NCBI GenBank assembly: GCA_024641665.1
Contig: JAHECP010000006.1
Span: 4,541-68,540 of the forward strand
Direction of reading: 5' to 3'
Source of the DNA: Acidobacteriota bacterium
Lineage (GTDB): Bacteria > Acidobacteriota > Vicinamibacteria > Vicinamibacterales > JAHECP01
Length of the DNA: 64,000 nucleotides
The position numbers and the translations under genes were made by a program. Shown piece by piece: positions 19,961-64,000 of the stretch; positions within the stretch are counted from its first letter, which is position 1, and each line of letters begins with the position of its first letter. A model generated the notes under the pieces. That model ran no database searches and was not told the origin of the DNA. It saw nothing but the letters and a program-made list of their open reading frames with translations.

Positions 19961-21283
19961 ATGGAGACTGACTACGAACAGGGCCTGTTCTCACCCGCCT
20001 TGATGCAGGAGATCAGGAACCAGTTCATCTACGTCGATTGGGACCCCTACTCCGGCCGGCGCATCTTCTTCGATGCGGCGTCAGGCTCGTGCCGGCCAAC
20101 GCGGGTCATCGAGGCGATGGGGATGGAAACCTGTCTCCCGGACCAGCAGGGGCGCGCCAACCCTGGCTCCCAACACGCCATGGACGTGACCGCGAAGGGG
20201 ATCGAGGATCTGATGATCTTCTTCGGTGCGAGATCCGGTCAGATCATCCCGGGCTGGAGCAGCAGCCACGTCATCTTCCGCATCACCGACGCCGTCGTCT
20301 CCACGATCCCCGGCACGAACGTCATTACCACGGGCCTGGACCACGCGTCGGTCCAGAGCGCGTTGGCGCTCTTCGCCGCGAAGTATCACAAGGAGCTGCG
20401 CGTCGCCGCGCCCGACCCGGACACGGCCTCGGTCAAGACCGACGCGATCTTGAACCACGTCGACGAGCACACGTGCTTCCTCGTCCTGACCCACACGTCG
20501 AACGTCACCGGTGAGGTCTACGACGTCAAGACCATCATTCGCGAGGCCCGTGCGATCAAGCCCGACCTGTTCGTGATGGTCGACGGCGTGCAGTACTCTC
20601 CATCCGACGTCATCGACGTCGAGGACGTCGGCGCCGACGCCTACGTCATCGCGCCCTACAAGAATTACGGTGTCAAGGGCTGCGGCTACGCGCACGCATC
20701 GGAGCGGCTCGCCGCGCTGCCGCACTGGAAGTACAGCCTCAAGCCGGCCGCCTGCTGGGATCTGGGCGGCGTCGAGCACCAGTCCTACGCGGCCTGGTCG
20801 GCGGTCGTCGATTACCTGTGCTGGCTCGGCGGGCGGTTCACGAGCGCTTCCGACCGGCGGTCGCTCGTCGTCGCGGCGATGAAGGCGATCAAGGCGCACC
20901 AGGTCGGGTTGCTGTCGCTGTTGCTCCACGGGACGGGCGATGTGGCCGGCCTCAGGGAGATGGATCACGTGACCGTCTACGGGGTCGGCGATCCTCTCTG
21001 GAAGCAGTCGCTGCTGGTCGGGTTCAACCTGGCCGGGATCGAATCCACCGAGGGATGTGCCCTCTACAAGTCGGCCCAGATCCGCGTGCACGCGCCAGGC
21101 CACGATCCGTACTTCGCGGCGATGCTGCGGCAGATCGGCATCGACAGTTGCATCAGGCTGTCGGGCAGCCACTACAACTCGCCCCAGGAAATCGAGGCCT
21201 TCTTGCGGGCAACCGCGAGTTTTGCCACCGAGCGGGACGCGCCACTGGACGGGCGTCGTGCAGACGTGACCATCGCGACCTGA
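19961..21283 (+). CDS. Aminotransferase class V-fold PLP-dependent enzyme (cysteine desulfurase/SufS-like fold, specificity unknown)
   Basis: ..RRIFFDAASGS.., ..LVLTHTSNVTGEVYDVKTI.., ..MVDGVQYSPSDVIDVEDVGADAYVIAPYKNYGVKGCGYAH.. (Lys in APYK aligns with the SGHK PLP lysine), ..IRLSGSHYNSPQEIEAF... Confidence 0.75.
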   Translation: METDYEQGLFSPALMQEIRNQFIYVDWDPYSGRRIFFDAASGSCRPTRVIEAMGMETCLPDQQGRANPGSQHAMDVTAKGIEDLMIFFGARSGQIIPGWSSSHVIFRITDAVVSTIPGTNVITTGLDHASVQSALALFAAKYHKELRVAAPDPDTASVKTDAILNHVDEHTCFLVLTHTSNVTGEVYDVKTIIREARAIKPDLFVMVDGVQYSPSDVIDVEDVGADAYVIAPYKNYGVKGCGYAHASERLAALPHWKYSLKPAACWDLGGVEHQSYAAWSAVVDYLCWLGGRFTSASDRRSLVVAAMKAIKAHQVGLLSLLLHGTGDVAGLREMDHVTVYGVGDPLWKQSLLVGFNLAGIESTEGCALYKSAQIRVHAPGHDPYFAAMLRQIGIDSCIRLSGSHYNSPQEIEAFLRATASFATERDAPLDGRRADVTIAT

Positions 21284-21493
21284 CGCGCCGCCGGCAGGGA
21301 GCGCGTCCTCGTGCGCACAGCCGCCCTAGAACCGGTTTCATGATCTCCGCAGCGCCAATGAGCGCCGCGGCGAATTGGAAGAACGCCAGGAACATCCGGG
21401 TGGAGCGCTCGTGGCGAACCAGCAGCCGGCGGAAGCCATAGCGTTATCTTGCGCGGTCGAACCGCAGCACCCGCGCTTCTAGGAGGCGAAGTC

Positions 21494-22471
21494 ATGTTCA
21501 GGATGCGATTTCTGATTGGAGCTATCGGACTTGTGCTGTTGTGCCCTGCGACCTCACCAGGACAATCGCTTGTGGCCGTCTCGGCCCGGGGCGAGGGGGC
21601 CGTCAAGCTCTACTCGCCGGTCCGCGACACTCTTCGCCTGGTCAAGTCCGTTCCTGCCGGGCGGCAGCCCGGCGAGATGTGTCTGGATCCCGAAGGGACG
21701 CACCTGTTCGTGGGAGAGGTTCCGGAAAAACAAGTAGGTGTGCTCGATCTGCAGAGCAAGACCATCGTCGCCACCATATCCGATCCCGGCATCGAGTCAC
21801 CGGACGGATGCGCCGTCAGCCCGGACGGAAGCAAGCTGTACGTCGTGGATAGGGAAGCCAACACCGTCTTCGTCTTCAATATCGCGTCCCGCCAGCTGAT
21901 CAAGAAGATTGCGGTGGGCCAAGAGCCAAGGCGTGCGCTGTTTTCACGCGACGGAAAGACAGTTATCGTCACCAGCGCCGAAGCCGCCACCCTCACTGTG
22001 ATCGACGCTTCGACCGATACGATCGTGCGCACCGTCAAGACCGGCCACGGACCTCAGGACCTCGCCTTTACGCCGGACGGCAAGTTACTGGTCGTCGGGC
22101 TCATCGACGATGACGCGGTCGGTTACTTCAATGCCAACACGTTGGAGCTCGAGCAGGAGGTTGGGACTGTCCAATCGCCGCAGCATGTCGTCCCCTCGCT
22201 GGATGGCCAGCTCTTGTTCGTCTCAGGCCATCTCCAAGGTGTCATCGGAGTGATGAACCTGCGCCCGAACAGCCGATTGGCGCGTCGTCTTGTCCAAACG
22301 ATTCCGGTCGGCACCAGGACCCAGTGGGGCCTGACCATGAGCGCGGACGGCAAGTACTTGTACTCAACACAGCCGGCCGATGACGCCCTTTCAGTCATCG
22401 ATCTGCAGTTGATGAAAGCTGTCTTCACCTTGCACGTTGCGGGGGCCGGTGCAGTGATCTTCTGCAAGTGA
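21494..22471 (+). CDS. Secreted YVTN-type beta-propeller protein, paralog P1
   Basis: AGGAGG RBS + ATG 21494. Signal-like MFRMRFLIGAIGLVLLCPATSPGQS. Repeated ..PDG..LYV..N.V.V(I)D.. blades. Colinear with the 31251 and 47775 genes. GC is lower (about 52-62%) than the surroundings. Confidence 0.8.
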   Translation: MFRMRFLIGAIGLVLLCPATSPGQSLVAVSARGEGAVKLYSPVRDTLRLVKSVPAGRQPGEMCLDPEGTHLFVGEVPEKQVGVLDLQSKTIVATISDPGIESPDGCAVSPDGSKLYVVDREANTVFVFNIASRQLIKKIAVGQEPRRALFSRDGKTVIVTSAEAATLTVIDASTDTIVRTVKTGHGPQDLAFTPDGKLLVVGLIDDDAVGYFNANTLELEQEVGTVQSPQHVVPSLDGQLLFVSGHLQGVIGVMNLRPNSRLARRLVQTIPVGTRTQWGLTMSADGKYLYSTQPADDALSVIDLQLMKAVFTLHVAGAGAVIFCK

Positions 22472-22489
22472 AGAGATCTCCATTTGGCA

Positions 22490-22531
22490 CGGAAGAAGCG
22501 GTTCGATCTTGGCCCATTGCGCGTCGGTCAG
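22490..22531 (-). mobile_element. Stub of an IS5-family (IS427/IS1031-like) transposase N-terminus
   Basis: Minus-strand translation gives RLTDAQWAKIEPLLP. This matches the conserved ..LTDxxWxxIEPLLP.. opening of IS5-family DDE transposases (from memory). Homology stops after about 15 codons, where it abuts the end of the P1 gene. Confidence 0.4.
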
Positions 22532-22635: not shown

Positions 22636-25455
22636 GTGAGGGCCCGAATCTTCGTCTTGCTGCTTTGCTTGATCTCGTTGCCGACACGCGATGTTGGAAC
22701 GGCGCGCCAGGGCGGTTCCGCATCGGTCGTCGCGCTGACGAACGCGACAGTCGTCGTCGGCAACGGCCAGGTGCTCCCGCGGGCGACCGTGGTCGTGCAC
22801 GACGGGATCATTCGCGCGGTCGGTGCCAAGGTGGCGATCCCGGCTGGCGCGAGGGTGGTGAACCTGGGTGGCGCCTACCTGTACCCGGGGCTGATCGACG
22901 CGCTGACGGTTCAGGTTTTCAAGGATGCGCCGGCCGGGCACGCTGCGCAGGCTGGTTCGACGTCGCGCGGACAGCCCGCTGCTTCCGACCAGGCAGGTCC
23001 TGACGGCGGCGGCTTCTTCGCGCACGTCGAGGCAGCCGACCAGCTCGATCCCGACCCGGCCGCCTGGGCGGCGTGGCGTGACGCGGGCATCCTGACGCTG
23101 CACGTGTCGCCGGACCGTGGCATCTTCGAGGGACAGACGGCGGTGGTGACGCTCGAGGGCGAGGCCGCGACGCCGAGGGTCATCCGCCGGGCCGTTGGGA
23201 TGCGGATTGCGCTGCGCACCCTCAGTGCGCCTCGACGGGCGGGCTTTCCGGTTCCGGGCGGGCTGTATCCCGGCTCGCTCCTCAGCGTCTGGTCCCATAT
23301 CGAGCAGACCGTGCTCGACGCGCAGCACGCCCTGAAGGCCGCCGCCTTCCCCGCGACCGACCTCGCCTCGATCGGGTACGCGGAGCCCGTGCGCGCACTC
23401 GAGGCCCTGCGCCCCGTCGCGGAAGGGACGATGCCGCTCATCGTTCCGGCGCGCGCCGAGCGCGAGGTGCAGCGGGTCCTCGACCTCGCGGACCGGTTTC
23501 ACGTCCGGTGCATGATCGCCGGCGGCTACGAGGCCGCGCAGCACGCCGAGGCGTTGAAGGCCGCGAAGCTGCCGGTCATCGTCAGCCTGAATTTCCCGCC
23601 CAGGCCAGCGAGCCGGCTGGGCAAGCAGGCGCAATTCGTCACGACCGCCGCAGCGGCCGCGCCCGAGGAAACCTACCTGGAGATGCGGGCCCGGGTCCAT
23701 GCGCCGGAAGCGGCCGGGGAGCTGGCGCGCGCGGGCGTGCCGTTCGCGTTTGCATCGGACGGGTTGAAGACGGGTGACGCGTTCCTGGCGAACCTCCGGC
23801 GGGCGGTGGCGAACGGCCTGTCGAAGGAGGCCGCCATCCGCGCGGCAACACTGTCGGCGGCGGAGATCCTCGGCGTGGCGCAGCAGGTGGGCAGCATCGA
23901 GCCCGGCAAGATCGCGAACCTGATCGTCGCCGACGGCGATCTGCTCGATGAGGGCACCCGCCTGACGGCGGTCTACGTCGGCGGCCACGAACGGACGGCC
24001 GCGACGACGGAGTCCGGAGCGGCATCGGTCCCGACGCCGGTTCCCGGGCGGCGTGCGGCCGCACGCGCGCCGGCCGCCCCCCCGTTCGTCTCGCGCGTGA
24101 TGGCCGCCGGCACCGACCCGTACTTCCCGCCGCCGGTCGCGTCCGAGGAGCTTCTCATCAGGAACGCCACGGTCATGACGGCGACGCACGGCACGCTCGA
24201 GCACACGTCGATTCTGGTCCGTCATGGCAAGATCGCCGCGATTGGCGCCAACCTCGAGGCCGGACCGCAGGCGCGGATCGTCGATGCGACCGGCAAGTGG
24301 GTGACGCCCGGCTTCATCGACACCCACAACCACATCGGGAGCGACGCGCACAACGACGCCACGATTGCCGTGACGTCGATGACGAAGCTCGAAGACGTCA
24401 TCGATCCGACCGAGATCGGGGTGTACCGGGCGCTGAGCGGCGGTGTGACGATGGTGCACACCATGCACGGCAGCGTCAACCCCATTGGCGGGCAGGGCGT
24501 TCTGATCAAGACGGCGTGGGGGAAACCCGCCAAGGACCTGGTCGTGCCCGGAGCGACACCGACCCTCAAGATGGCGCTCGGGACCAACCCGAAGGGCCGC
24601 GGCACCCAGCCGGCGGAGGGCGTGGCGCGGCGGTACCCCGCGAGCCGCATGGGCGTCATGGACGTCATCCGAAGCGCGCTCGTGGCGGCGAGGGACTACA
24701 AGCTGCAGTGGGATCTCTACGAGAAGGCCCGCGACGGGCACCTCGGCCTGCTGCCCCCGCGGCGCGATCTCACGCTCGAACCCCTCGTGGAGGTGTTGAC
24801 GGGCACGCGCATGATCACGGTCCACGCGTACCAGGCGGACGAGATGCTGACCCTGATGCGGCTGGCCGACGAGTTCGGCTTCAAGGTCGGCCGCTTCGAG
24901 CATGCCGCCGAGGGGTACAAGATCGCGCCCGAGCTGGCGCGACACGGTGCGGGCGTTGCCGCCTTCGATCTGCTGGGCACCAAGGTCGAATCGTGGGATG
25001 CCATTCCCCAGGGGATCGCCGTCCTCGTCAAGGCGGGCGTGTCGGTGTCGATCGGCACCGATGGCTGGGAAGTCGCGCACATGGTGCACGAGGCGGCCCA
25101 GACGCTCGAGTACGGGTTGACGCCCGATCAGGCCCTGGCGCTCATCACGATCAACGCCGCGAAGCAGCACGGCGTCGATCGGACAGTCGGTTCCATCGAC
25201 GAAGGCAAGGACGCCAACCTGGTGATCTTCGACAAGTACCCGTTCAGCGTGTACGCCACGCCGGAGCAGGTGTACATCGACGGGCAGTTGTATTTCAGCC
25301 GCGCACGCGACCGGGAACGGGCGAAGGCGATCGCGGCCGAGAAGGAGCGGTTGTCCGCGCTCGACGAGGTGCCGGCTGCGCCCGGCGTGACGACCGGGTC
25401 GCCGGCCGTCCGCCCGCAATCGCCCGCAGGAAGGCAGGTACCCAGTGGCCGCTAG
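22636..25455 (+). CDS. Two-domain amidohydrolase: N-terminal domain lacking the HxH metal motif + C-terminal catalytic-type domain
   Basis: GTG start with a GGAGG RBS and a signal-like N-terminus. Domain 1: ..YLYPGLIDALTVQVF.. (no HxH) ..GSIEPGKIANLIVADGD... Domain 2: ..WVTPGFIDTHNHIGSD.. (HxH present) ..SIGTDGW..GSIDEGKDANLVIFD... Confidence 0.8.
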   Translation: MRARIFVLLLCLISLPTRDVGTARQGGSASVVALTNATVVVGNGQVLPRATVVVHDGIIRAVGAKVAIPAGARVVNLGGAYLYPGLIDALTVQVFKDAPAGHAAQAGSTSRGQPAASDQAGPDGGGFFAHVEAADQLDPDPAAWAAWRDAGILTLHVSPDRGIFEGQTAVVTLEGEAATPRVIRRAVGMRIALRTLSAPRRAGFPVPGGLYPGSLLSVWSHIEQTVLDAQHALKAAAFPATDLASIGYAEPVRALEALRPVAEGTMPLIVPARAEREVQRVLDLADRFHVRCMIAGGYEAAQHAEALKAAKLPVIVSLNFPPRPASRLGKQAQFVTTAAAAAPEETYLEMRARVHAPEAAGELARAGVPFAFASDGLKTGDAFLANLRRAVANGLSKEAAIRAATLSAAEILGVAQQVGSIEPGKIANLIVADGDLLDEGTRLTAVYVGGHERTAATTESGAASVPTPVPGRRAAARAPAAPPFVSRVMAAGTDPYFPPPVASEELLIRNATVMTATHGTLEHTSILVRHGKIAAIGANLEAGPQARIVDATGKWVTPGFIDTHNHIGSDAHNDATIAVTSMTKLEDVIDPTEIGVYRALSGGVTMVHTMHGSVNPIGGQGVLIKTAWGKPAKDLVVPGATPTLKMALGTNPKGRGTQPAEGVARRYPASRMGVMDVIRSALVAARDYKLQWDLYEKARDGHLGLLPPRRDLTLEPLVEVLTGTRMITVHAYQADEMLTLMRLADEFGFKVGRFEHAAEGYKIAPELARHGAGVAAFDLLGTKVESWDAIPQGIAVLVKAGVSVSIGTDGWEVAHMVHEAAQTLEYGLTPDQALALITINAAKQHGVDRTVGSIDEGKDANLVIFDKYPFSVYATPEQVYIDGQLYFSRARDRERAKAIAAEKERLSALDEVPAAPGVTTGSPAVRPQSPAGRQVPSGR

Positions 25456-26764
25456 ATCACGACGTCAATCGGGGCGCCGCGCGCCCATCGTCTGCGCCGC
25501 GGTTGGCGCGGCGCTCCTCGTCTTCACCGATGTCGCCTCCGCCCAGCAGGCCTACGCGATCAAAGACGCGCGCATCGTCACCGTGTCGGGACCGGTGATC
25601 GAGAAGGGGACGGTCGTGATCCGCGACGGCCGCATCGCCGATGTCGGCGCGGCCGTCACCGTGCCAGCCGAGGCGACGGTCATCGACGGCCGGGGGCTGA
25701 CGGTGTACCCCGGGCTGTTCGACGCCTTCACCAGCGTCGGCCTCACCGAGATCCCCGGCCTCTGGGAATCGGACGACTTCAGCGACATCGGTGACTTCAC
25801 GCCGCAGCTCATGACGTTCGACGCGTTCCACAGCGCCAGCGCGTTTGTCGCGATCGCACGATCGGTCGGCATTCTGCACGTGGTGAGCAGTCCCAGTAGC
25901 GGCATCGTGGCCGGCCAGGGCGCCGTGATGGCGCTCGGCGGGTGGACGGCCGACGAGATGGTGGTGGCCAAGCATGGCCCGATGTTCGTCGACTTTCCGA
26001 AGCTGCTCAACTACGACGCGCCGGCCTACACGCGCCGCCGCCACCCGTATGCCGAGGTGAAGGACTACGCGACGAAGATGCGCGAGCTGACAGAGTTCTT
26101 CGCCGCTGCGCGCAAGTACATGGACGCCAGGGACCAGGCCGGGGCCGAGGCTCCCGCCCCGACGGCCGAGGAGGCGCCGTACGAGGCGATGATCCCGGTG
26201 CTCAAAGGGCGGCAACCGGTGTTCATCGAGGTGCAGAGCGAACAGGACATCAGAAAGGCGGTCGGGTTCGCGCGCGAACAGAAGCTGAACTACGTGCTGG
26301 TCGGGGCCGAAGACGCGCCGCTCCTCGCCGACTTCCTGAAGGAGCAGGACGCCCGCGTGATTGTCGGTCCTCCCGGCGACATGCCGATTCGCCCCGACGA
26401 CCCGGTCGACACGGTGTGCCGCGCCGCGGCCGTGCTGCACGAGCACGGGGTCGGGATTGCCTTCGGAACGGTAAGTGGAACGGCCAACGACCTCAGCCTG
26501 CGCCACCAGGTCGGCATGGCGGTGGCGTGCGGCCTCCCGCGCGACGTGGCGCTGCGCAGCGTCACGCTGACGCCCGCCGAATTCGTCGGCGTCGCCGGTG
26601 AGGTGGGCAGCATCGAGACGGGCAAGCGGGCGGACCTCGTGCTGACCGACGGCGACATCTTCGAGTACGGAACCCACATCATCCAGACCTTCGTCAACGG
26701 GAAACAGGCGGGCGTGGAATCGCGCTACACGGACCTGTACGAGAAGTACAAGGACAGGAAATAG
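25445..26764 (+). CDS. Amidohydrolase-fold protein lacking the HxH motif (probable non-catalytic partner)
   Basis: ..LTVYPGLFDAFTSVGLTEI.. replaces the PGxxDxHxH motif. C-terminal ..GSIETGKRADLVLTDGD... GTG start overlaps the upstream stop by 11 nt. Signal-like N-terminus. Confidence 0.78.
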   Translation: MAARSRRQSGRRAPIVCAAVGAALLVFTDVASAQQAYAIKDARIVTVSGPVIEKGTVVIRDGRIADVGAAVTVPAEATVIDGRGLTVYPGLFDAFTSVGLTEIPGLWESDDFSDIGDFTPQLMTFDAFHSASAFVAIARSVGILHVVSSPSSGIVAGQGAVMALGGWTADEMVVAKHGPMFVDFPKLLNYDAPAYTRRRHPYAEVKDYATKMRELTEFFAAARKYMDARDQAGAEAPAPTAEEAPYEAMIPVLKGRQPVFIEVQSEQDIRKAVGFAREQKLNYVLVGAEDAPLLADFLKEQDARVIVGPPGDMPIRPDDPVDTVCRAAAVLHEHGVGIAFGTVSGTANDLSLRHQVGMAVACGLPRDVALRSVTLTPAEFVGVAGEVGSIETGKRADLVLTDGDIFEYGTHIIQTFVNGKQAGVESRYTDLYEKYKDRK

Positions 26765-31165: not shown

Positions 31166-31198
31166 TTGACAAACATAGATATTGTATATGAAATATCC
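31166..31198. promoter_or_regulatory. AT-rich box copy 3 (TTGACAaacatagatattgtataTGAAATatcc) in the divergent M14 / propeller-P2 intergenic region
   Basis: TTGACA 31166-31171, a 17-nt spacer, then TGAAAT 31189-31194. Core TTGTATATGAAATATCC lies 52 nt before ATG 31251. The reverse strand reads CATATACAATATCTAT towards the M14 gene. Confidence 0.55.
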
Positions 31199-38058: not shown

Positions 38059-38096
38059 CCGATGGCCACCGTCGAACGGTGTGAACGGTGCCGAAG

Positions 38097-43257: not shown

Positions 43258-43282
43258 ACCGGGTCCCGTGCTGCGGCGGACG

Positions 43283-45961: not shown

Positions 45962-45987
45962 GGGATATGATATACTTTGCGCATATG
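45962..45987 (+). promoter_or_regulatory. AT-rich box copy 4 (GGGATATGATATACTTTGCGCATATG) overlapping the GntR start; TATACT 45971-45976 lies 8 nt before ATG 45985 (near-leaderless)
   Basis: The reverse complement AAGTATATCATATCCC matches copy 5 (TAGTATATAATATCCC) at 14/16 positions. Confidence 0.5.
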
Positions 45988-47895: not shown

Positions 47896-47915
47896 CATAT
47901 AGTATATAATATCCC
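47896..47915. promoter_or_regulatory. AT-rich box copy 5 (CATATAGTATATAATATCCC) in the divergent P3 / M28 intergenic region
   Basis: Contains a perfect TATAAT (47905-47910), 72 nt before ATG 47988. The reverse strand reads GGGATATTATATACTATATG towards P3. Confidence 0.55.
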
Positions 47916-51901: not shown

Positions 51902-51924
51902 CCGCCGGCCGAAGGGAGCACCAG

Positions 51925-52899: not shown

Positions 52900-52947
52900 T
52901 TGAGCCGCGCGACATTCCCGGCGTTCCTCATGGAGGACCACATCGAG

Positions 52948-56193: not shown

Positions 56194-56364
56194 CAATGTC
56201 CCCAGCTGCGATGACGTGGGGCCGTCCGGGCGTCAGGAAGCACCCGTGCAGCAGTTTCCAGCCGCATGGCCCGACGCCCTCGCGGTTCGCGACCGCTCTC
56301 GAGACACGAACGCCAGGGACCGACTGGGCCGACCCCTGGCGTCGGTCGCCGCCGCGCGGGCGGG

Positions 56365-59109
56365 TCAGAACGAGAAGCGCAATCCGAGCCCGGCCTGCCG
56401 GGCGGACGCCCAGGCGCTCGGCACGCCGTAGCTACTGCCAGAGGATTCGGTCACCGCTTGCGCCGATCCGTGGTTCAGCGCGTTGAAGACATCGACGTAG
56501 ATCCCGGCGGTCCCTCCGGACGCACCGAGGCTGGGCACACGGAACGTCTTCTCGAAGCGCACGTCGAGCTGATTGAGCGGGTCGGCGGTGTAGGCCCCGC
56601 GCGGCTCGACGCGCACGGTCTGGTTGCCCTGACTGAGCCCGCGGATGGTGGCGGTGCGGCCATACGGCGCGCCGCTGGCGTAGCGGTAGGTCCCGCTGAT
56701 GTTGAAGCCCCCGTAGTAGGGCAGCCGATAGGTGCCGTTCAGGACGAACTGGTTCGGGACGTCGAACTGCCCGGGACCCCAGGCGTTGATCAGCACGTTG
56801 GGGTTGGCCCACGCGCCCGTCTGGCCGACGTCCGGGCCGGTGCCGATGTTGTTGTTCTTGAAGTTGTTGACGTTGCCGATGCCCTTCGACCGCGTGTAGG
56901 ACACGAGCAGCTGCCAGTTGTGGGAGAAGCGCTTCTGGGCGATCAGCATGAACGCCGTGTAGCGCCGCGTCGCGTCGCTGGGGTTGGAGAAGACGAGCAC
57001 CGACTGCCCGGGGTTGTCCAGGTTGTAGACGGTGAGCATCGCGCCGTCATCCGGCGTGCCGGCCACGTTGTCCGGGCCCGGGTCCTGTTTCGAGATGGGC
57101 GTCCAGGTCGACGCCGTGTCGACGAAGGCGAAGATGTCGCCCCAGGTGCGGCGCACGAACTGGGCGGTGATGCCGAAGTCGGGGAACAGCTCGTGCTCGA
57201 GCGCGACCGTGAACTGATCCAGGTTCGCCTGCTTCAGGTTCGTGTCGATCGACAGGTTGCCCGGCATGACCGACCGGTTCAGCTCCTGGAAGCTGCCGTC
57301 GGCGAGCACCTTGGCGGTGATCTTCGGCGACCAGTCACTGAAGTCGAGGAAGTTGAACATCTGGGGCGAGACGTCCTCGTGGAACCGGCCGTAGTGGCCG
57401 CGCAGGAGCGTCCGGTGGTCACCCCGCAGGTCCCAGGCGAAGCCGATCCGCGGGTCCACGGGGTTGGTGCTGAAGACACCGCTCTCGCCCGGAATCGAGC
57501 CGCGGTTCAGGCCGATGCGGACGCCGGGCTCCAGGATGATCCGGTCGGTCAGCTGCCACGCATCCTGCGCGAAGAGGCTGACGCGGGTGGAGATCCCGTC
57601 AACCGTCTGCCCGTCCCACAGCGTGACCTGGTTCGGCACGCCGCCCTTGTCGGAGTACAGGCGCCCGCCGGCGTATCCGCTCCAGTTGTAGATCTCGGTG
57701 CGCACGAACTCGCCGCCGAGCTTCAGCTCATGGCTCTTGCCGGCGACTCCGTCCACCCATCGCGTCACGCTGCCCGACACGTTCTGGCGGGGTTGCTTCT
57801 GCCTGGAGAAGCCGGTGTAGTTGCCCCACGAGTAGCCCCAGACCGTGTCGGTGTGCGCGTAGGGTCCGTCAATCGTGTTGGGCGGGAGGGGCATGAACTC
57901 CTGGGTGAAGGACAACCCGCCGCCGCGGATCTCGACGAGCGTCTTATCGTTGGCGGTCCAGGTCAGCCGCGCGCTGTACATGGTCTTGGGCAGGTCGCCC
58001 GAATACTGCGCGCTGGCGTCGAGGTTGGTCCGGGTGCCGTAGGTCTCCATCGCGTCCAGGTCGTGCTCGACGAACGCCTCCACCTTGACGCTGTTCGCGG
58101 CCGCCCAGTTGATCTTCCCGACGTACCGCTTCCAGCGCTCCTGCGAGGGCACCGGCTTGCCGTCGGGCCCCGGGAGTGCTCCCGCGGTGACCGATCCGTT
58201 GCGGTAGTACTGGCCGCCCGCGAAGAAGAAGAGCTTGTCCTTCACGAGCGGACCGCCGCCCTGGTAGCTCAGATCCCACAGCGTGTCGATCTCGGCCGGC
58301 GTGAACTTGGCCTGGAGCGACGGATCGAGGCCGCCCGTGTTGTCCCCCAGCCAGCTCTGCCGCGTTGTCGTGTACTCGAACAGGCCCGAGAAGTTGTTGC
58401 TGCCCGAGCGCATGATCATGTTCGAGATCGTGCCGGTGAACTCGCCGTACTCCGCGTTGGCGCCGAGCGCGACGACCTGCACCTCCTGCATCCAGTTGAA
58501 GTTCAGAATCGAGGTGCGGATATTGCCGCCCGGGACGCTCGAGGACATGCCATCGACCAGCAGGTTGTTCGCGTCGCGCGCGCCGCCGTGCGCGGTGCGG
58601 TTGGTCGTGACCCCGGGGGCCAGGGCGAAGACCTCGTTCGGCCGGTCGCTGCGGCCGCCGACGGGCAGGCTCTGCAAGAGCTCGTTGTCGACCTTGGTGG
58701 TCGAGGCGGCCGTCTTGACGTCGATGACCGGCGTGTCCCCGGTGACCGTGACGGTCTCCTCCACGTTGCCGACCTGCATGACGAGGTCGACGGTGACCGT
58801 GGTCCCGAAGTCCACCTGCAGCTGCGTCCGGTTGACCGTCCGGAAGCCCTGGAGGGTGGCATCGACGGCGTAGACGCCCGGGGGAAGGTCGGAGAAGCGG
58901 TAGACCCCTCGGGCGTCGGTGACCGCGGTCTGGGCACCGCCGACCATGTTGGGGCTGGAGAGCGTCACGGTGACGCCGGGCAGCACTCCGCCGGTGTCGT
59001 CCTTGATGACGCCCGAGATCTCGGAGCGCGTTTGCGCCCAGGTGGTTCCCGCCGTCGCCAGGAGGATGAGCGCGGCGGCGACCACCAGCCATCTGCTGCG
59101 AGCGGCCAT
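56365..59109 (-). CDS. Oar-like TonB-dependent outer-membrane receptor with N-terminal CarboxypepD_reg domain
   Basis: AAGGAG RBS + ATG 59109 and signal MAARSRWLVVAAALILLATAGTTWAQ. ..ISGVIKDDTGGVLPGVTVTLSS..DARGVYRFSDLPPGVY.. is the CarboxypepD_reg domain. Long beta-barrel region with the terminal ..GLGLRFSF. Confidence 0.85.
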   Translation of the reverse strand: MAARSRWLVVAAALILLATAGTTWAQTRSEISGVIKDDTGGVLPGVTVTLSSPNMVGGAQTAVTDARGVYRFSDLPPGVYAVDATLQGFRTVNRTQLQVDFGTTVTVDLVMQVGNVEETVTVTGDTPVIDVKTAASTTKVDNELLQSLPVGGRSDRPNEVFALAPGVTTNRTAHGGARDANNLLVDGMSSSVPGGNIRTSILNFNWMQEVQVVALGANAEYGEFTGTISNMIMRSGSNNFSGLFEYTTTRQSWLGDNTGGLDPSLQAKFTPAEIDTLWDLSYQGGGPLVKDKLFFFAGGQYYRNGSVTAGALPGPDGKPVPSQERWKRYVGKINWAAANSVKVEAFVEHDLDAMETYGTRTNLDASAQYSGDLPKTMYSARLTWTANDKTLVEIRGGGLSFTQEFMPLPPNTIDGPYAHTDTVWGYSWGNYTGFSRQKQPRQNVSGSVTRWVDGVAGKSHELKLGGEFVRTEIYNWSGYAGGRLYSDKGGVPNQVTLWDGQTVDGISTRVSLFAQDAWQLTDRIILEPGVRIGLNRGSIPGESGVFSTNPVDPRIGFAWDLRGDHRTLLRGHYGRFHEDVSPQMFNFLDFSDWSPKITAKVLADGSFQELNRSVMPGNLSIDTNLKQANLDQFTVALEHELFPDFGITAQFVRRTWGDIFAFVDTASTWTPISKQDPGPDNVAGTPDDGAMLTVYNLDNPGQSVLVFSNPSDATRRYTAFMLIAQKRFSHNWQLLVSYTRSKGIGNVNNFKNNNIGTGPDVGQTGAWANPNVLINAWGPGQFDVPNQFVLNGTYRLPYYGGFNISGTYRYASGAPYGRTATIRGLSQGNQTVRVEPRGAYTADPLNQLDVRFEKTFRVPSLGASGGTAGIYVDVFNALNHGSAQAVTESSGSSYGVPSAWASARQAGLGLRFSF

Positions 59110-59333: not shown

Positions 59334-59364
59334 GAATACTATATATAATATAGGCCACTGTCAA
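59334..59364 (-). promoter_or_regulatory. AT-rich box copy 6; textbook TTGACA-N17-TAGTAT on the minus strand, ~225 nt upstream of the receptor ATG
   Basis: Minus strand reads TTGACAgtggcctatattatataTAGTATtcc (-35 at 59364-59359, -10 at 59341-59336). The + strand reads GAATACTATATATAATATAGG. Confidence 0.6.
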
Positions 59365-59434: not shown

Positions 59435-60370
59435 TCACGGCCGCTCGCGCGCGCTCGCGGCCGCCGGCTTCAAGTGCCGGTCGAGCCATCGAATCGTCTC
59501 GGCCGTGATGTCGGGCCACTCGGGATGCGGCGTGTCGGCCGTCGCACCGAACGTGGCGCCGTGGACCCCGCCCGGAATCCTCAACAGCCTGACCGGCACC
59601 CCGGCCGCCCGCAGCGCCTTCTCGAACGTCACCGACTGCTCGTAGGGCACGGTCGGGTCCGCGTCGCCGTGAACGAGCAACGTCGGGGGCGCGGCGCTCG
59701 ACACGTGCGTGATCGGCGAGGCCTCGGTGTACACCTTCTTCGCCGGCGGTGAGTTGCCTGGAGCGATGTCCAGGAACAGCGCCAGCGCAACGAGGCCGTT
59801 GCCACCCTTCATCTCCCTCAAGTCGGACGGTGCGGCCCGCAAGACGAGGCACTGCAGCGTGGCGGGCTCCCCGTTCACCGGGTCGTCGCGATCGTCCGCG
59901 TTTCCCGGCGCGCCGAGCACCCCCGTGAGCCCGATCAGGTGCGCGCCCGACGAGCCCCCCACCCCGCCGATCCTGGTGGGATCGATGCCGTACGCGTTCG
60001 CATGGTGGCGGACGAAGCGCACGGCCCGCTGGACGTCCTCGACGGCCGCTGGATACTTGAATTCCGGCGCCGCCCGATGATTGATCGTGAAGACGGTGTA
60101 CCCGGCCCGCGCCAACGGCAGGACCGACGTCTCGAGCTCCGCCTCCTTGAGCTGACGCGCGTTGTAGGTCGACCGCGCCCGCCAGCCGCTGCCGGCGACG
60201 AAGACGACGCCGTACCTGTTGGGCGCATCGGGATGGTAGACATCCATGAGCAGGGCCAGGCCTCCGTACATCCCGTAGACCACGTTCCGGTCCACGCGCA
60301 GGTCGGCGGCCGCTGCCGGGCTGGCACCCAATAACGCCAGGGCGGTCACAATCATGCTCAGGCGACGCAT
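59435..60370 (-). CDS. Secreted alpha/beta hydrolase (esterase / S9-C-terminal-like)
   Basis: Signal MRRLSMIVTALALLGASPAAAA. ..VVFVAGSGW.., GGSSGAH (GxSxG), ..LLVHGDADPTVP.., ..GGVHGA... Confidence 0.78.
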   Translation of the reverse strand: MRRLSMIVTALALLGASPAAAADLRVDRNVVYGMYGGLALLMDVYHPDAPNRYGVVFVAGSGWRARSTYNARQLKEAELETSVLPLARAGYTVFTINHRAAPEFKYPAAVEDVQRAVRFVRHHANAYGIDPTRIGGVGGSSGAHLIGLTGVLGAPGNADDRDDPVNGEPATLQCLVLRAAPSDLREMKGGNGLVALALFLDIAPGNSPPAKKVYTEASPITHVSSAAPPTLLVHGDADPTVPYEQSVTFEKALRAAGVPVRLLRIPGGVHGATFGATADTPHPEWPDITAETIRWLDRHLKPAAASARERP

Positions 60371-60402: not shown

Positions 60403-61049
60403 CTACTGTTCCGACCCCAGCCCGGCGAGGATGTCCGAGATGTCGCGGGCGAGGGGGACGATCCGGGCGTTCTCGAGGTTCGTCATCAAGGCCACGACCT
60501 GCTTCCGGTCCGGCCGCAGGTACAGCAGGTTCGTCACCCGCTGCTGGTTGCCCGTGTGCAGGATCTCAGGCACGCCGTCGTGCCACCGCAGCATCCAGCC
60601 GATGCCGTACGCGAGCTCGTCACCGGCGGGTTGTGGCCTCCGTTTCGTTGCCGGATAGGGCGTCCACATGAGGTCCACCGTCTGCGGCTCGACGAGCCTG
60701 CCCGCCTGGAACGCCACAGCGAACCGGGCGAGATCCACGACGGTTGCGTCGAGGCCTCCTCCCGGGATCTTGTAGCTGGTGTCGGCGAGGTGCGAGTTGC
60801 GGAGCTCGCCGCTCGGCAGCTGCGGACGACGCCGTCCACGGCAACGGCGATCGAGACCGCGGGAATGGTCTGGCGGGCCATCTCCGTCGTGATCGCCCGT
60901 TCGATCCGCGCCTGCACGTCGGCCGGCAGCCCGGTCGGCGCCGGCGCGGTGACAGCCTGCTGCGGGTGGGTCCATGCCTGTGGGGGGTGCCCCAGACCGA
61001 TCGCCGCCGCGGCGACGACCGGGACCAGCCATCGCATCCACCTGTGCAT
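60403..61049 (-). pseudogene. Beta-lactamase-family serine hydrolase with internal deletion + frameshift (catalytic SxxK region missing)
   Basis: Frame A from ATG 61049: MHRWMRWLVPVVAAAAIGLG..LPADVQARIERAITTEMARQTIPAVSIAVAVDGVV. The sense continues only in another frame: ..QLPSGELRNSHLADTSYKIPGGGLDATVVDLARFAVAFQAGRLVEP..AYGIGWMLRW..VVALMTNLE..*. Total is about 215 codons versus 350-480 for intact relatives such as 32262-33713. Confidence 0.6.
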
Positions 61050-61154: not shown

Positions 61155-61178
61155 CAAATATATCGTATATCATACGTA
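61155..61178. promoter_or_regulatory. AT-rich box copy 7 (CAAATATATCGTATATCATACGTA) between the pseudogene and the 61394 gene
   Basis: Core TCGTATATCATAC. Lies 106 nt from the pseudogene ATG (minus) and 216 nt from ATG 61394 (plus). Confidence 0.45.
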
Positions 61179-61393: not shown

Positions 61394-62476
61394 ATGCGAG
61401 CAGGACAGATCGTCCCGTGCGGGTTCGCGGTGATCGCCGGCGTCGCGGCGACCCTCGTGGCCCAGGCGCCCCCGCCGTCCGTGGTGCGCCCGCTCGACGA
61501 TGCCCGGAAGAAGGCATTCGTCGAATACGTCGTGGCGCACTACCAGACACCAGAGGACCTCGTCGCCGCGCTGTTCGAGGACCACGACATCGTGTTCATC
61601 GGGCATCACCATGCGAAGCAGGAGGTGGAGTTCCTCTACCCGCTGCTGGAGCGGCTGTATCGGGCTGGCGTGTACAACCTGAGCTTCGAGTTCGCCCTGC
61701 ACGCCGATCAAGAGAAGATCGATCGGCTCGTCACGGCCGACGCGTACGACGAGAGCCTGGCGCGCCAGGTGACCTACAACCGATACGAGGACGGCTACCA
61801 GGAGGACGCGGATCTCTTCAAGGCGGCCTGGCGCCTCAACCGGCAGCTGCCCGCTGGAGCGCGCCCGTTCCGGATCATGGGCATCAACGAGATTGACGGT
61901 ACGGACCTGGCGCCGAAGGGCACGCCGCTCGACGAGCTGAACGCGATTCGCAACAAGTACCTGAACGGGCACCGCCGGGACATCGTCAATCGGACGTGGG
62001 CTGATTTCATTTCGCGAGATTTCATTGCCAACAAGGAGAAGGCTGCCGTGTTCGTCGGGTCGGCCCATGCCACCACGAGGTTCCGGCTCGACCGGCGCCC
62101 CCTGACGGCGCACTTCACGAGCGTCGGGAACTTCATCTACAACTACATCGGCGAGCGGGCGACCACCGTGTTCCTGCACGGCGCGACGCCCCTGCAGCGG
62201 TCATATCTGAAGGGCGAAGCGGCGACCGCCGAGGCCAACAAGGCCACGGCGCAGATCGAAGAGCTGATGGCCGCCGTGCCGGCCCAATACCGGCGCGTCG
62301 GACTCGCGGTGCGGCCGGGAACGCCGTTCGGCGATCTGCCGGTTCCCGCGCCCGGCTACGTCAACGGGCGAGCGAGCGGCTTCACGTGGGCGGACATTTG
62401 TGATGGGTATGTCTACCTGATTCCGGCGGGGGAGTACGAGCGGCCGACGCCCTTTGCGAAAGCCGGCGGCTCCTAG
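61394..62476 (+). CDS. Hypothetical secreted protein, possibly ChaN/Tiki/erythromycin-esterase superfamily
   Basis: GGAGGA RBS + ATG 61394. Signal-like MRAGQIVPCGFAVIAGVAATLVAQA. ..HDIVFIGHHHAKQEVEFLYPLLERLYRAGVYNLSFEFA..DQEKID.. resembles the GExH..E..Q layout of ChaN-like proteins. The family assignment is weak. Confidence 0.45.
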   Translation: MRAGQIVPCGFAVIAGVAATLVAQAPPPSVVRPLDDARKKAFVEYVVAHYQTPEDLVAALFEDHDIVFIGHHHAKQEVEFLYPLLERLYRAGVYNLSFEFALHADQEKIDRLVTADAYDESLARQVTYNRYEDGYQEDADLFKAAWRLNRQLPAGARPFRIMGINEIDGTDLAPKGTPLDELNAIRNKYLNGHRRDIVNRTWADFISRDFIANKEKAAVFVGSAHATTRFRLDRRPLTAHFTSVGNFIYNYIGERATTVFLHGATPLQRSYLKGEAATAEANKATAQIEELMAAVPAQYRRVGLAVRPGTPFGDLPVPAPGYVNGRASGFTWADICDGYVYLIPAGEYERPTPFAKAGGS

Positions 62477-62585
62477 GCCGTGGATACGAACCGCGCATTG
62501 TCGGATGCGAAGGACGGATCTCGCCTCGCGTCCCGCCAGCACACCGCGGGAAGCACAGGGCGCGGCAGCCCGGACCGCGAATCGC

Positions 62586-64000
62586 CTATCGCCGGGCCAA
62601 CAAGGGCGTCGAGGTTGGCGTCGCCGGACGCTTCATGTACTTCTCGTACTCGCGGCGATCGAGCGTCTCGAGACTCGCCGGTTCGCCGTTGACGAAGACG
62701 TACTTGACCTCCGTCTGGGCGTCGAAGATGTCGCCGGTCGCCACGACCAGGTTCGCGATTTTCCCCGTGTCGATGCTGCCCAACTTGTCGGCCACGCCGA
62801 GGAACTCGGCCGGCGTGAGGGTGACGCTGCGCAGCGCCACGTCATAGGGAAGGCCGTAGGCGACGGTGTTGCCGACCGAATACGGGAAGATCCGCGTGAG
62901 CGCCGGGCGGAAGCCGAGCGTCGAGATCGCGACGGGCACACCCTTGTCATGGAGCACGGCCGCCGTCCGGTACGCGATGTCGATCGGATCGTCCTCGGCC
63001 TGCCCCGTGCTGAGCGGCCAGCTGAGCAGCACGCGCACGCCGTGCTGCTTCAGGAAGTCCGCGACCCGCCAGGCGCCCGACCGGGCCCCGATGACGTAGT
63101 TCAGGTGCTCCTCCAAGGCGAACTCGACCGCCGTCCGGATGTCCACGTGGTTGACCGTCTCGATGATGACCGGTTCCCGGCCGTCGAGCACGGGGATCAT
63201 GGCCTCGAGCTGGTCGTCCTTCGTGAACCCGGCTCCGGTTGCGTTCCGCGCCTTCGTCGCCATGTACGCGCGCGCCTTGGCGAAGAAATCCTCCAGCTGT
63301 CGCAGCTGGCGGTCGTACTGCACCTTGGTTGCGGAGAACGGCGTCACCTGGAATCGCTCGTCCTCGGTGTATTCCAGCGAGCCGACGGTCGGAAAGACGA
63401 CGACCAGCGCGGTGCGCGGCCGCGCGAGCATCTCCTCGCCGGTCCAGCCATCCAGGTTCATGATTTCGCCCTGTCCCGGCACCACGCCGCGCGTCGGGCG
63501 GGCGAGCACGTGGGTGATGCCGGCCGCGCGCGCGCGGGGGATGTCGTCGCTGTCCGCGAAGAACGACGTGGACGGGGTCAGCTGCGGTACGAACGCCCCC
63601 AGCTGGCGCTCGGCCGCGGCCTCGCTCATGCCCAGCCCGCTGTCGGCATCGAAGAGGCCCGGGTACACCGTGAGCCCGCGGCCGTCGATCACGCGCGCGC
63701 CCTCCGGCCTGGCGACGTCCGTCCCGACATCCGCGATGAGGCCGTTGCTGATGACGACCGAGCCATCCTCGAGGGTCGGGGCGGACACTCTGACGACCTT
63801 TGCGTGCTCGATGACGTAGCTCGCCCGCGTCGGACGCAGCCGCCAGGCCGGCGGGGGCGTGCTCACGGTCGCGCCGGCGGAGGGCGGTGCCGGCGGGGCC
63901 GGCGCGACCGTCGCCTCGGCTCCCGGCCGCGCGGATGACGGCGCCAGCCGCTCGCGTTCGGCGTCGAGCCAGGCCTGCCGCTCCTTCTCGTGCTCGCGGC
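62586..64000 (-). CDS. Amidohydrolase-fold protein lacking HxH (paralog of 25445-26764); frame stays open upstream to the window edge, possibly fused to or preceded by a catalytic amidohydrolase
   Basis: ..LTVYPGLFDADSGLGMSE.. (no HxH) and ..GSIDTGKIANLVVATGD... The track start GTG 63866 is only the first start codon in an open frame. Upstream in the same frame my translation gives ..REHEKERQAWLDAERERLAPSSARPGAEATVAPAPPAPP.., which resembles the C-terminal tail of 22636-25455. Confidence 0.7.
   Translation of the reverse strand, partial: REHEKERQAWLDAERERLAPSSARPGAEATVAPAPPAPPSAGATVSTPPPAWRLRPTRASYVIEHAKVVRVSAPTLEDGSVVISNGLIADVGTDVARPEGARVIDGRGLTVYPGLFDADSGLGMSEAAAERQLGAFVPQLTPSTSFFADSDDIPRARAAGITHVLARPTRGVVPGQGEIMNLDGWTGEEMLARPRTALVVVFPTVGSLEYTEDERFQVTPFSATKVQYDRQLRQLEDFFAKARAYMATKARNATGAGFTKDDQLEAMIPVLDGREPVIIETVNHVDIRTAVEFALEEHLNYVIGARSGAWRVADFLKQHGVRVLLSWPLSTGQAEDDPIDIAYRTAAVLHDKGVPVAISTLGFRPALTRIFPYSVGNTVAYGLPYDVALRSVTLTPAEFLGVADKLGSIDTGKIANLVVATGDIFDAQTEVKYVFVNGEPASLETLDRREYEKYMKRPATPTSTPLLARR

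Follow-up and report, generated by a model that had tools for sequence, protein, structure and literature searches.

The 64,000-nucleotide stretch of DNA analysed here (the window; positions 4,541 to 68,540 of contig JAHECP010000006.1, from a soil Acidobacteriota bacterium of the order Vicinamibacterales) contains an island of genes which starts at about 19.5 kb and runs past the window end to 68.4 kb or further, and which probably represents a single autoregulated GntR regulon for the scavenging of peptides and amino acids, which would work in the manner of a polysaccharide utilization locus (PUL) without being one. The island is read as one regulon on the basis of a 17-bp motif located at its promoters, of the fact that this motif tracks the regulator across relatives, and of the recurrence of the same gene families. 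The sequence examined comprised the window and a public contig of the same organism (L001), which reaches to about 69.4 kb.

According to the mechanism proposed, the FadR-subfamily regulator (45967-46680) would bind the 17-bp operator as a dimer in the promoter region of at least nine transcription units, its own gene included. Since the operator lies over the -10 region at three sites (O3, O6 and an eighth one just past the window end), the default state is most likely repression, which would be lifted when a small-molecule product of the pathway is bound by the FCD domain. The induced cell would then export exo- and oligopeptidases (M14, two M28, two S9, S12, S33, and three to four amidohydrolase-type dipeptidases) alongside esterases and several beta-propeller proteins. 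The oligomeric products might enter through the single Oar-type TonB-dependent receptor and be trimmed in the periplasm, and three cytoplasmic pyridoxal phosphate (PLP) enzymes would process the released amino acids, unusual ones included. Binding of the motif by GntR, repression, the identity of the effector, the import of peptides by the receptor, and peptides as the substrate are the steps that we infer; the receptor is the sole candidate importer in the island, and the complement of carboxypeptidases, aminopeptidases, oligopeptidases and dipeptidase-like amidohydrolases fits a stepwise extracytoplasmic degradation of peptides. A peptide target had already been suggested by the first-pass annotation of this DNA, and it is consistent both with this peptidase content and with the peptidase and amino-acid genes located under the same operator in relatives.

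Gene Content of the Island

Since the window has a G+C content of about 69% and its true genes a third-codon-position GC (GC3) of about 0.9, genes were called from third-codon-position GC; they were annotated with Pfam and NCBIfam, signal peptides were judged by a hydrophobicity heuristic, and gene starts were set heuristically as well. The analysis disclosed 26 genes from about 19.5 kb to past the window end, 13 of which (13/26) encode clear hydrolases. A signal-peptide-like N-terminus is present in about 21 of 25 products, those of AT5, AT3, PALP and GntR being without one. The first-pass description of almost every gene as encoding a hydrolase with a signal peptide therefore stands as far as export is concerned, and is too generous as to hydrolases: the other members include the three cytoplasmic PLP enzymes (19961, 33728, 51898), three YncE/YVTN propellers (21494, 31251, 46792), a GH74-like double propeller, and two proteins without a family (40205, 52930). 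The families and coordinates that it listed (M14, two M28, two S9, S33, S12, Fes-like, PHP-esterase and BNR) were recovered with Pfam and NCBIfam, and so were its amidohydrolase domains (double at 22636-25455, single at 25445-26764, and one from 62586 past 64000); a BD-FAE esterase is located at 59435-60370, and the S33/TAP-like alpha/beta hydrolase at 41653-43257. One Oar-type receptor (56365-59109) and one GntR+FCD regulator (45967-46680) are present, as it had stated. The GH43-like propeller had to be abandoned: no membership of GH43 could be demonstrated, the propellers being of the YncE/YVTN type and unk1 showing only the weak fold matches reported below.

The block, which had been placed between 19.9 kb and the window end, is real but larger, since in L001 the 1311-aa amidohydrolase is followed by a divergent 50% paralogue of unk1, which takes the block to 68.4 kb at the least; it begins at about 19.5 kb. 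The co-directional runs had been described as having tiny gaps, and in most of them the distances do range from -11 to 56 bp, with exceptions of 210, 164, 386, 168 and 325 bp. The run from 61049 to 54052 keeps its direction on the minus strand, but the "gene" at 60403-61036 is a remnant of an S12 gene; together with a propeller fragment, this remnant points to continuing gain and loss. Paralogues within the island share 25-45% identity. The genes are the following, loci of relatives being designated by L numbers.

19961-21283 (+): AT5, class-V PLP enzyme, cysteine-desulfurase-like and cytoplasmic, member of the conserved core (Pfam Aminotran_5; NCBIfam VC1184-like, below cut-off), with only distant kinship to cysteine desulfurases
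21494-22471 (+): prop1, exported YncE/YVTN seven-bladed beta-propeller (Pfam Lactonase/YNCE); the signal peptide appears only with the upstream ATG at 21494, which has an AGGAGG ribosome-binding site
22636-25455 (+): exported double amidohydrolase, 939 aa (Pfam Amidohydro_1/3, three stretches; best NCBIfam match a Caulobacter-type Xaa-Pro dipeptidase, below cut-off); 44% homologue in the L121 island
25445-26764 (+): exported amidohydrolase, 439 aa (Pfam Amidohydro_1/3), 45% identical to the one at the window end
26799-28202 (+): exported Fes-like esterase (Pfam Enterochelin_N and Esterase; NCBIfam enterochelin esterase, 203 bits against a cut-off of 222)
28186-31104 (-): exported M14-family protein, 972 aa (Pfam Peptidase_M14, partial match), divergent from O3
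31251-32240 (+): prop2, exported YncE/YVTN beta-propeller opening the long operon (Pfam and NCBIfam); homologues (40-41%) adjoin Oar receptors or operators in L095, L116 and L122
32262-33713 (+): exported S12/beta-lactamase-family serine hydrolase (Pfam Beta-lactamase, 244 bits; best NCBIfam match AmpH-like); 86-91% orthologue in L114
33728-35089 (+): AT3, cytoplasmic class-III aminotransferase of the diaminobutyrate/GABA type (Pfam, 328 bits; TIGR00709, 409 bits, above the cut-off of 401.6); orthologues of 87-91% in L118 and L114
35098-38058 (+): BNR, exported sortilin/BNR-like protein, 986 aa, core member (Pfam and structural model)
38088-40157 (+): S9a, exported prolyl-oligopeptidase-family peptidase with a PD40 propeller (Pfam Peptidase_S9, 175 bits; Dpp5-like, below cut-off); 50% orthologue after BNR in L010
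40205-41656 (+): unk1, exported beta-propeller of no assigned family (structural model)
41653-43257 (+): S33-like (TAP-like) alpha/beta hydrolase, possibly a lipoprotein, core member (Pfam Abhydrolase_1/4); orthologues of 54-89% beside BNR or GntR in L003, L010, L083, L114, L117, L119, L120 and L121
43273-43543 (-): remnant of a fourth YncE-type propeller gene (weak Pfam YNCE match on the 43022-43927 (-) translation; coding-like GC3 in the 386-bp gap)
43644-45839 (+): M28a, exported M28 peptidase, 731 aa (Pfam Peptidase_M28)
45967-46680 (+): GntR/FCD regulator of the FadR subfamily (Pfam GntR and FCD)
46792-47775 (-): prop3, exported YncE/YVTN beta-propeller (Pfam), 41% identical to prop2, divergent from O5
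47988-49682 (+): M28b, exported M28 aminopeptidase with a PA domain (Pfam PA and Peptidase_M28, 108 bits); 64% orthologue in L118
49739-51901 (+): S9b, exported S9 peptidase with a propeller (Pfam Peptidase_S9, 132 bits, and DPPIV_N)
51898-52899 (+): PALP, cytoplasmic CysK-like fold-type II PLP enzyme (Pfam PALP, 235 bits; cysKM, 309 bits against a cut-off of 344); in L113 a 51% homologue has the operator upstream and a GntR gene downstream
52930-54003 (+): unk2, exported and family-less (no match in Pfam, NCBIfam or PDB)
54052-56196 (-): exported fusion of a PHP (CehA/McbA-type) metallohydrolase and an esterase (NCBIfam CehA_McbA_metalo, 103 bits, above the cut-off of 80; Pfam BD-FAE / Abhydrolase_3)
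56365-59109 (-): Oar-type TonB-dependent outer-membrane receptor (Pfam CarboxypepD_reg, PF13620, 61 bits, and OMP_b-brl_4, PF25183, 97 bits); homologues (43-51%) adjoin GntR or operators in L095, L121 and L122
59435-60370 (-): exported BD-FAE-family esterase (Pfam BD-FAE, 142 bits); homologues follow AT5 in L116 and L117
60403-61036 (-): S12 remnant, a pseudogene (C-terminal part of Pfam Beta-lactamase only; signal peptide retained, catalytic part lost; 111 aa called in the public contig)
61394-62476 (+): exported ChaN/Tiki-superfamily-like protein (weak Pfam Cofac_haem_bdg match, 20 bits, below cut-off; signal-peptide-like N-terminus)
62586-64000 (-): large amidohydrolase crossing the window end (Pfam), 1311 aa in full in L001, with its start at about 66.5 kb

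The Putative Operator Motif and the Regulator

The analysis of the intergenic regions revealed that a 17-bp AT-rich motif, (A/G)TAT(G/T)ATATA(C/T)AATATT, occurs at seven places in the 64 kb, all of them promoter regions of the island. A search for RTATNATATAY with at most one mismatch gave 20 overlapping matches that collapse to these seven sites, against 0.18 expected from shuffled sequences; when the threshold of a position weight matrix (PWM) was lowered to 10 bits or more, one further match (16 bits, at 4899) was obtained in the 64 kb. A scan for A/T-rich 16-mers (at least 14/16 A/T) disclosed seven stretches in the window, five of which belong to the motif. All seven sites are intergenic, the distance to a start codon being 4-226 bp, and three of them are found within divergent promoter regions. 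The sequences flanking the sites differ, so that the motif is not a dispersed repeat. Neither the pattern search, nor the intergenic listing, nor the PWM found it at the housekeeping promoters of the flank (1-19.5 kb). This distribution agrees with the proposal, made at first pass, that the genes form one locus, and the sharing of one motif by seven promoter regions and an eighth predicts that they are co-regulated rather than independently expressed. The sites are listed below.

O1, 19546-19563: AATATGATATATAGTATT (PWM 34.8 bits and pattern match), intergenic, upstream of the AT5 operon and of a frameshifted (-) open reading frame (ORF)
O2, 19728-19745: AATATTATATACAATTAT on the minus strand (PWM 33.5 bits), 216 bp upstream of AT5
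O3, 31178-31195: PWM 24.1 bits, between M14 (-) and the prop2-S12-AT3-BNR-S9-unk1-S33 operon (+), with TTGACA 11 bp upstream on the plus strand
O4, 45964-45981: ATATGATATAC (pattern match), at the start of the GntR gene (predicted autoregulation); kept as CATATGATATACTTT in L114, the 89% relative
O5, 47896-47913: PWM 31.3 bits, between prop3 (-) and the M28-S9-PALP-unk2 operon (+)
O6, 59335-59352: PWM 32.9 bits, upstream of Oar, overlapping a promoter-like TTGACA-17-TAGTAT
O7, 61159-61176: PWM 27.2 bits, perfect dyad CGTAT-GAT-ATACG, between the S12-remnant/BD-FAE unit (-) and the ChaN-like gene (+)
Eighth operator, about 66.81 kb (L001 2541-2558): just past the window end, between the divergent 1311-aa amidohydrolase and the unk1 paralogue

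A TTGACA hexamer precedes O3, O6 and the eighth site by 10-11 bp, and in these three cases the motif covers the -10 region. A scan with the sigma-70 consensus returned two promoter-like sites only, with no excess over shuffled sequences; the promoter architecture is therefore drawn from the three visible TTGACA boxes.

Directly downstream of O1, the region 18710-19350 (-) is coding-like, with a frame switch near 18.9 kb and no Pfam match, and corresponds to a frameshifted or pseudogenised ORF or to two short ORFs; because of its position it may be an extra or decayed member of the regulon.

The regulator matches Pfam GntR with 61.2 bits (cut-off 27) and FCD with 93.9 bits (cut-off 24.3). Its database copy is 237 aa long and located on a 79-kb contig (P0001), and 538 homologues were retrieved at E≤1e-40. 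In a metagenome scan anchored on GntR, with orthologues of 56-84% identity, all the fetched loci were scanned for the motif. High-GC loci with a GntR orthologue contain 19 sites in 224 kb. In the high-GC loci of Acidobacteriota and Gemmatimonadota that lack an orthologue, 1.08 Mb in total, there is a single site, and the locus concerned (L113) has a GntR fragment at its edge. PWM matches in low-GC Bacteroidota loci were set aside as compositional noise. GntR orthologues are preceded by the motif in more than 20 loci from metagenomes and metagenome-assembled genomes; for at least 14 loci the distance between the site and the start of the orthologue is 20-90 bp, and the site often reads GTATGATATAYAATATT. 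The 35 distinct sites yield the consensus (A/G)TAT(G/T)ATATA(C/T)aATATt, with an invariant ATATA core; many of them read TTGTATAT(C/A)A, and several are perfect dyads, such as CGTAT-GAT-ATACG and GATAT-TAT-ATATC. The sites of the FadR subfamily are A/T-rich palindromes with TKGT/ACMA boxes (PMC4494728); here many sites include a TTGT box, but with ATMA instead of ACMA as its partner.

Conservation in Relatives

Conservation was evaluated by tblastn of all the window proteins against 80 genome loci anchored on BNR, and then on loci anchored on the regulator, which were read by family and operator. It emerges only after anchoring on the regulator: membership and control are kept, gene order is not. 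The conserved core is AT5-BNR-S33-GntR, whose genes are directly adjacent in L083. The gene orders seen in relatives are given below, with the operator as [site]; apart from L114, they come from longer Vicinamibacterales contigs and represent islands of these families with several operators.

L010: [two sites]BNR-S9-Oar-GntR-S33
L114 (GntR 89%): Oar-S9-S12-AT3-BNR-S33-[site]-GntR
L116: [site]S33-GntR; BNR[site]; lactate permease[site]AT5-BD-FAE; [site]-GGT
L118: BNR-GntR-[site]-AT5; AT3[site]PA-M28
L120: GntR[site]S33-BNR-amidohydrolase; M42-asparaginase-M19[site]sarcosine oxidase
L121: PALP-GntR[site]BNR-S33; PepSY_TM[site]Oar-unk1, then S15, S9, GDSL lipase and two amidohydrolases
L122: Oar, DUF885, [unk2-esterase, M28, S9, PALP][site]GntR, DAO, YncE propeller[site][amidohydrolase-FGE-S33 fusion, S12, hydantoinase]

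These seven loci jointly carry BNR, S33, AT5, AT3, S12, S9, M28, BD-FAE, amidohydrolases, YncE propellers and Oar receptors. A site lies upstream of AT5 orthologues in L084, L116, L117 and L118, before BNR in L003, L010, L116 and L121, before S33 in L116 and L120, and before the orthologues of AT3/PA-M28 in L118, of Oar-unk1 in L121 (where a 69% unk1 orthologue follows the receptor under the operator) and of PALP-S9-M28 in L122. Genes for M19, M42, M24, GGT, asparaginase, sarcosine oxidase and threo-3-hydroxyaspartate ammonia-lyase (above the NCBIfam cut-off) are found under the same operator in relatives, and they point in the same peptide direction as the peptidases of the window. Relatives also carry MFS, lactate permease or PepSY_TM genes. 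The PALP enzymes of L105 and L093, considered as possible CysK-like orthologues, were dropped, being of the threo-3-hydroxyaspartate ammonia-lyase/dehydratase types. The island of the window looks like an expanded version of these loci, with insertions between the core genes and two remnants.

AT5 orthologues 69-83% identical adjoin BNR in L083, L119, L007 and L068. In two of these loci, belonging to an Aminicenantes (L007 278-6151) and a Bacteroidales (L068 5446-12880) metagenome-assembled genome (MAG), AT5 (about 70% identical) forms a contiguous group with BNR and one or two S33-like genes. This cross-phylum conservation of AT5 is unusually high and points to either a tight functional trio or lateral transfer.

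Alternative Explanations

Several observations weigh against the regulon proposed here. Some island members are esterases or family-less proteins and not peptidases, and no characterised close homologue is available for the BNR, S33 and AT5 core. None of the island proteins has more than one hydrophobic 19-mer beyond its N-terminal signal sequence, and the island is without a gene for an inner-membrane transporter. A separate site is lacking for M28a, and the 210- and 164-bp gaps of the first run are devoid of one too. The scan covered the window and L001, and the regulon may have members elsewhere in the genome. The binding of GntR to the motif is predicted from co-occurrence and position only, and the motif contains a TATAAT-like stretch, so that part of its conservation could reflect a -10 box. 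In L119 the AT5-BNR-S33 genes occur without GntR and without a site, and L114, the closest long relative, has the autoregulatory site alone within ±10 kb. Finally, the gene order of the whole island is not conserved among the 80 BNR-anchored loci. Of the outcomes that the first-pass annotation considered refuting, however, neither missing co-localisation in relatives nor independent expression of the operons was encountered: one Vicinamibacterales relative after another has these families near the regulator, and the shared motif predicts co-regulation.

A possible, though tentative, alternative is that the same regulon serves not bulk protein but peptides that contain ester bonds and residues that are non-proteinogenic, D- or iso-linked, such as peptidoglycan stems, non-ribosomal peptides and depsipeptides, or peptidic siderophores. 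In the window, the S12 protein (from the family of D-stereospecific peptidases and D-Ala-D-Ala carboxypeptidases), M14 and the amidohydrolases would suit such substrates, as would the enterochelin-esterase homologue, which is near its cut-off and has a signal peptide, the two BD-FAE esterases and the CehA/McbA-esterase fusion, the diaminobutyrate-type aminotransferase, and the CysK/SbnA-like enzyme. Near or under the regulator in relatives there are, moreover, an S12+M15 fusion, a DAO-family oxidase, a GlcD-like D-2-hydroxyacid oxidase, a lactate permease, the threo-3-hydroxyaspartate ammonia-lyase, sarcosine oxidase, GGT, an isoaspartyl-type asparaginase, and PepSY_TM beside Oar. On the other hand, the window genes lack equivalog-level assignments, the "dat" subfamily excepted; no muramidase, muramoyl-alanine amidase or MurQ-type gene was found in the island; and general exopeptidases (M28, S9) dominate, family names not establishing stereospecificity. 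Since no assignment of a window gene is specific enough, these substrates are retained as a rival or a refinement of the peptide-scavenging regulon. In the fusion mentioned above (L104 6214-8349, -), an S12/beta-lactamase-family domain is joined to an M15 D-Ala-D-Ala dipeptidase, the neighbourhood including an Oar-type receptor and a GntR orthologue of 56% identity.

A further elaboration, which we regard as slightly less probable, is that the island might be the equivalent of a PUL for peptidic necromass in Vicinamibacterales, i.e., an expandable GntR regulon built on a BNR/S33/AT5 core. Its substrates would be peptides that are poor targets for ordinary proteases, with D-, iso-, N-methyl, beta-hydroxy or diamino residues (peptidoglycan stems, non-ribosomal peptides, depsipeptides and siderophores), which would be imported by Oar, with the YncE and unk1 propellers acting as binding or ring-opening accessories.

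It appears unlikely that the units are co-regulated through a motif that is an extended -10 or UP-type element, or the site of another factor, GntR being merely one of the targets. Such an explanation would account for the TATAAT or close variants present in many sites, for the expected -10 position of O3, O6 and the eighth site, and for the right half-site, ATMA in place of the canonical ACMA of FadR-type regulators (PMC4494728). It does not sit well, however, with the near-absence of the motif from the 1.08 Mb lacking a GntR orthologue and its presence beside the orthologue in most of the loci that have one, nor with the housekeeping promoters of the flank, which are devoid of it; furthermore, the dyad symmetry and the A/T-rich TKGT-type half-site are in line with descriptions of the FadR subfamily.

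Very little probability was assigned to a chance neighbourhood, in which exported hydrolases would be so abundant in Vicinamibacterales that a 45-kb run arises without any link. The sharing of the 17-bp motif by seven promoter regions of the island and none of the flank, where 0.18 matches were expected, and the fact that several independent relatives have these families grouped around this regulator and motif disfavour it, in spite of the lack of whole-island synteny, of the 80 BNR-anchored loci, most of which have no second family of the island within 10 kb, of the age of the paralogues suggested by their 25-45% identity, and of the tricorn protease and alpha/beta hydrolase genes in the flank. 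Secreted proteins of unassigned location and TonB-receptor proteins have also been reported to be numerous in Acidobacteriota (PMC11495043). Horizontal acquisition of the block as a genomic island, suggested by the sharp functional block beside housekeeping genes and by the S12 and propeller remnants, is scarcely credible and was rejected, since GC (0.65-0.72) and GC3 match those of the flank, no tRNA, Rfam element, integrase or transposase match was found in the window, and the orthologues of relatives from the same order share regulator and operator.

Comparison with Known Systems

The closest parallel to the proposed autoregulated peptide-scavenging regulon is offered by AusR, a GntR-family repressor encoded within the alginate PUL of Zobellia galactanivorans; it controls many promoters by binding to one, two or three operators, from which degradation intermediates release it (PMC7641319). 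A locus-encoded GntR, many promoters with single or multiple operators, and secreted degradative enzymes accompanied by a TonB-dependent receptor are common to both; release by degradation intermediates, demonstrated for AusR, would hold for the island by analogy. The AusR system belongs to Bacteroidota and combines alginate, carbohydrate-active enzymes and SusC/SusD, whereas the island, from Acidobacteriota, has peptidases and esterases, an Oar-type receptor, and neither SusD nor an inner-membrane transporter. The operator sequences also differ, and the island is known from its sequence alone.

With the PULs of Bacteroidota in general the island shares co-localised and apparently co-regulated exported hydrolases and an outer-membrane TonB-dependent importer (here a candidate one). 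However, no SusD-family Pfam match was obtained with any island protein and the SusC/SusD tandem is absent; the receptor is of the CarboxypepD_reg + OMP_b-brl_4 (Oar) type, and the enzymes are mainly peptidases. The carbohydrate utilization (CUT) loci of Xanthomonas, attributed to Blanvillain and colleagues (2007), are said to combine a TonB-dependent receptor, degradative enzymes, a local regulator and an inner-membrane transporter, with carbohydrates as targets. Like them, the island lies outside Bacteroidota and has a receptor (Oar-type), 13 hydrolase genes and a regulator (GntR), but it encodes no polytopic membrane protein and hence no inner-membrane transporter. Lacking both a SusC/SusD pair and such a transporter, it is neither a PUL nor a CUT locus in the strict sense, and the PUL-like organisation proposed at first pass survives as a functional logic only.

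The Oar protein of Myxococcus xanthus has been linked to protease export in development, not to nutrient import. The receptor of the window resembles it in having an N-terminal carboxypeptidase-regulatory-like domain (CarboxypepD_reg) followed by a large TonB-dependent outer-membrane beta-barrel; no Plug domain was detected in it with Pfam at E≤0.001. The M. xanthus protein gives no basis for assigning a function to the receptor of the window.

As to the regulator, the likeness to FadR-subfamily regulons (PMC4494728) includes the GntR winged helix-turn-helix and FCD domains, an A/T-rich operator with dyad symmetry and, in many sites, a TTGT box, and the sites in divergent intergenic regions; besides the deviating right half-site, the island differs in the additional conserved AATATT extension. 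The taxa tabulated in that survey exclude Acidobacteria, and its targets are mostly sugar-acid, lactate and fatty-acid genes (PMC4494728).

In agreement with the first-pass statement that no such locus type is named in the literature known to it, a search of the available library for a named "peptide/protein utilization locus" gave spurious matches only, and another on TonB/peptidase/GntR loci of Acidobacteria gave nothing specific. Vicinamibacterales and related Acidobacteriota are recurrent in the soil metagenomes scanned and hardly cultured, and their feeding on protein and necromass is known mostly from gene counts. The locus turns this into a testable system, with a named regulator, a 17-bp operator, eight predicted sites, about 25 target genes and one candidate importer; the operator is also usable as a genomic marker for further members in other MAGs. 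If the substrates were indeed D- or non-proteinogenic peptides, it would represent a recycling route for cell-wall and secondary-metabolite nitrogen in soil.

Protein Models of Core and Family-Less Proteins

The AlphaFold2 model of BNR (predicted local distance difference test score, pLDDT, 87) consists of a tandem double beta-propeller followed by a C-terminal beta-sandwich and a helical bundle. Its best Foldseek matches are GH74 xyloglucanases (E 1e-26, template-modelling (TM) score 0.58, 15-17% identity), and the tandem seven-bladed propellers forming a cleft, typical of GH74, are found in its fold; since the identity is 15-17% and the resemblance is at the level of the fold, BNR was not classed as GH74. 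The other propeller, unk1, has no match in Pfam, NCBIfam or PDB sequences and just 46 detected homologues; its AlphaFold2 model (pLDDT 91) is a beta-propeller whose fold resembles those of sialidases, GH43 and YncE only weakly (TM 0.3-0.45). Searches of PDB sequences with BNR, S33, unk1, unk2 and M14 gave nothing useful. The three recurrent families of no assigned function (the BNR double propeller, unk1 and unk2) are thereby flagged as putative parts of peptide scavenging.

In L122, a single called gene (2938-4770, -; 610 aa) contains both an unk2 homologue (48%) and an esterase domain, the latter 54% identical to the C-terminal half of the PHP-esterase of the window. Unk2 and the PHP-esterase are convergent neighbours in the window, and the arrangement in L122 hints at a functional link between them.

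The Left Flank

The left flank (1-19.5 kb) has a housekeeping content, with two hydrolase genes according to Pfam and NCBIfam. It contains the genes for a tricorn-type protease, an alpha/beta hydrolase, LysR, a homocitrate/isopropylmalate-synthase-like enzyme, isopropylmalate dehydrogenase (IPMDH), SPFH with a small GntR, GlmS-GlmU, a TPR protein, a nucleotidyltransferase and seryl-tRNA synthetase (SerRS). The individual observations made in it are these.

1-2763 (-): tricorn-type protease (PD40, Tricorn_C1, Tricorn PDZ), crossing the window start, its N-terminus being signal-peptide-like; this peptidase is not part of the block marked by operators
6290-6445: G+C-rich long inverted repeat GGGGTCAGGGGGCAGGGGTCAGG ... 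CCTGCCCCCTGACC... between the homocitrate-synthase-like gene and the IPMDH gene, which could be a terminator or an attenuator
8468-8866 (-): second GntR-type regulator, 132 aa, upstream of the SPFH/Band-7 gene
8867-8954: region upstream of this small GntR, with a different palindrome, GTACAATAGTAC, unrelated to the island motif
13995-15656 (+): gene without signal peptide and without operator, 32% identical over 28% of its length to the DUF885 gene in L122
15741-16047 (+): small CxxC...CxxC zinc-ribbon ORF, candidate FmdB-like, inside an apparent 598-bp gap

DUF885 genes adjoin GntR or Oar genes in L083 (6352-7998) and L122 (1120-2925). Lastly, short repeats resembling repetitive extragenic palindromic (REP) elements surround the nucleotidyltransferase and SerRS genes (16085-16115 and 17265-17295; also 16225-16250 and 18680-18705). 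They are of two kinds, each present in two copies: the first is GCCGAAGCTCGAAGAGCGGAGGCGG, and the second is the hairpin GGCCGGCTT(C/G)AGCCGGCCCGA.

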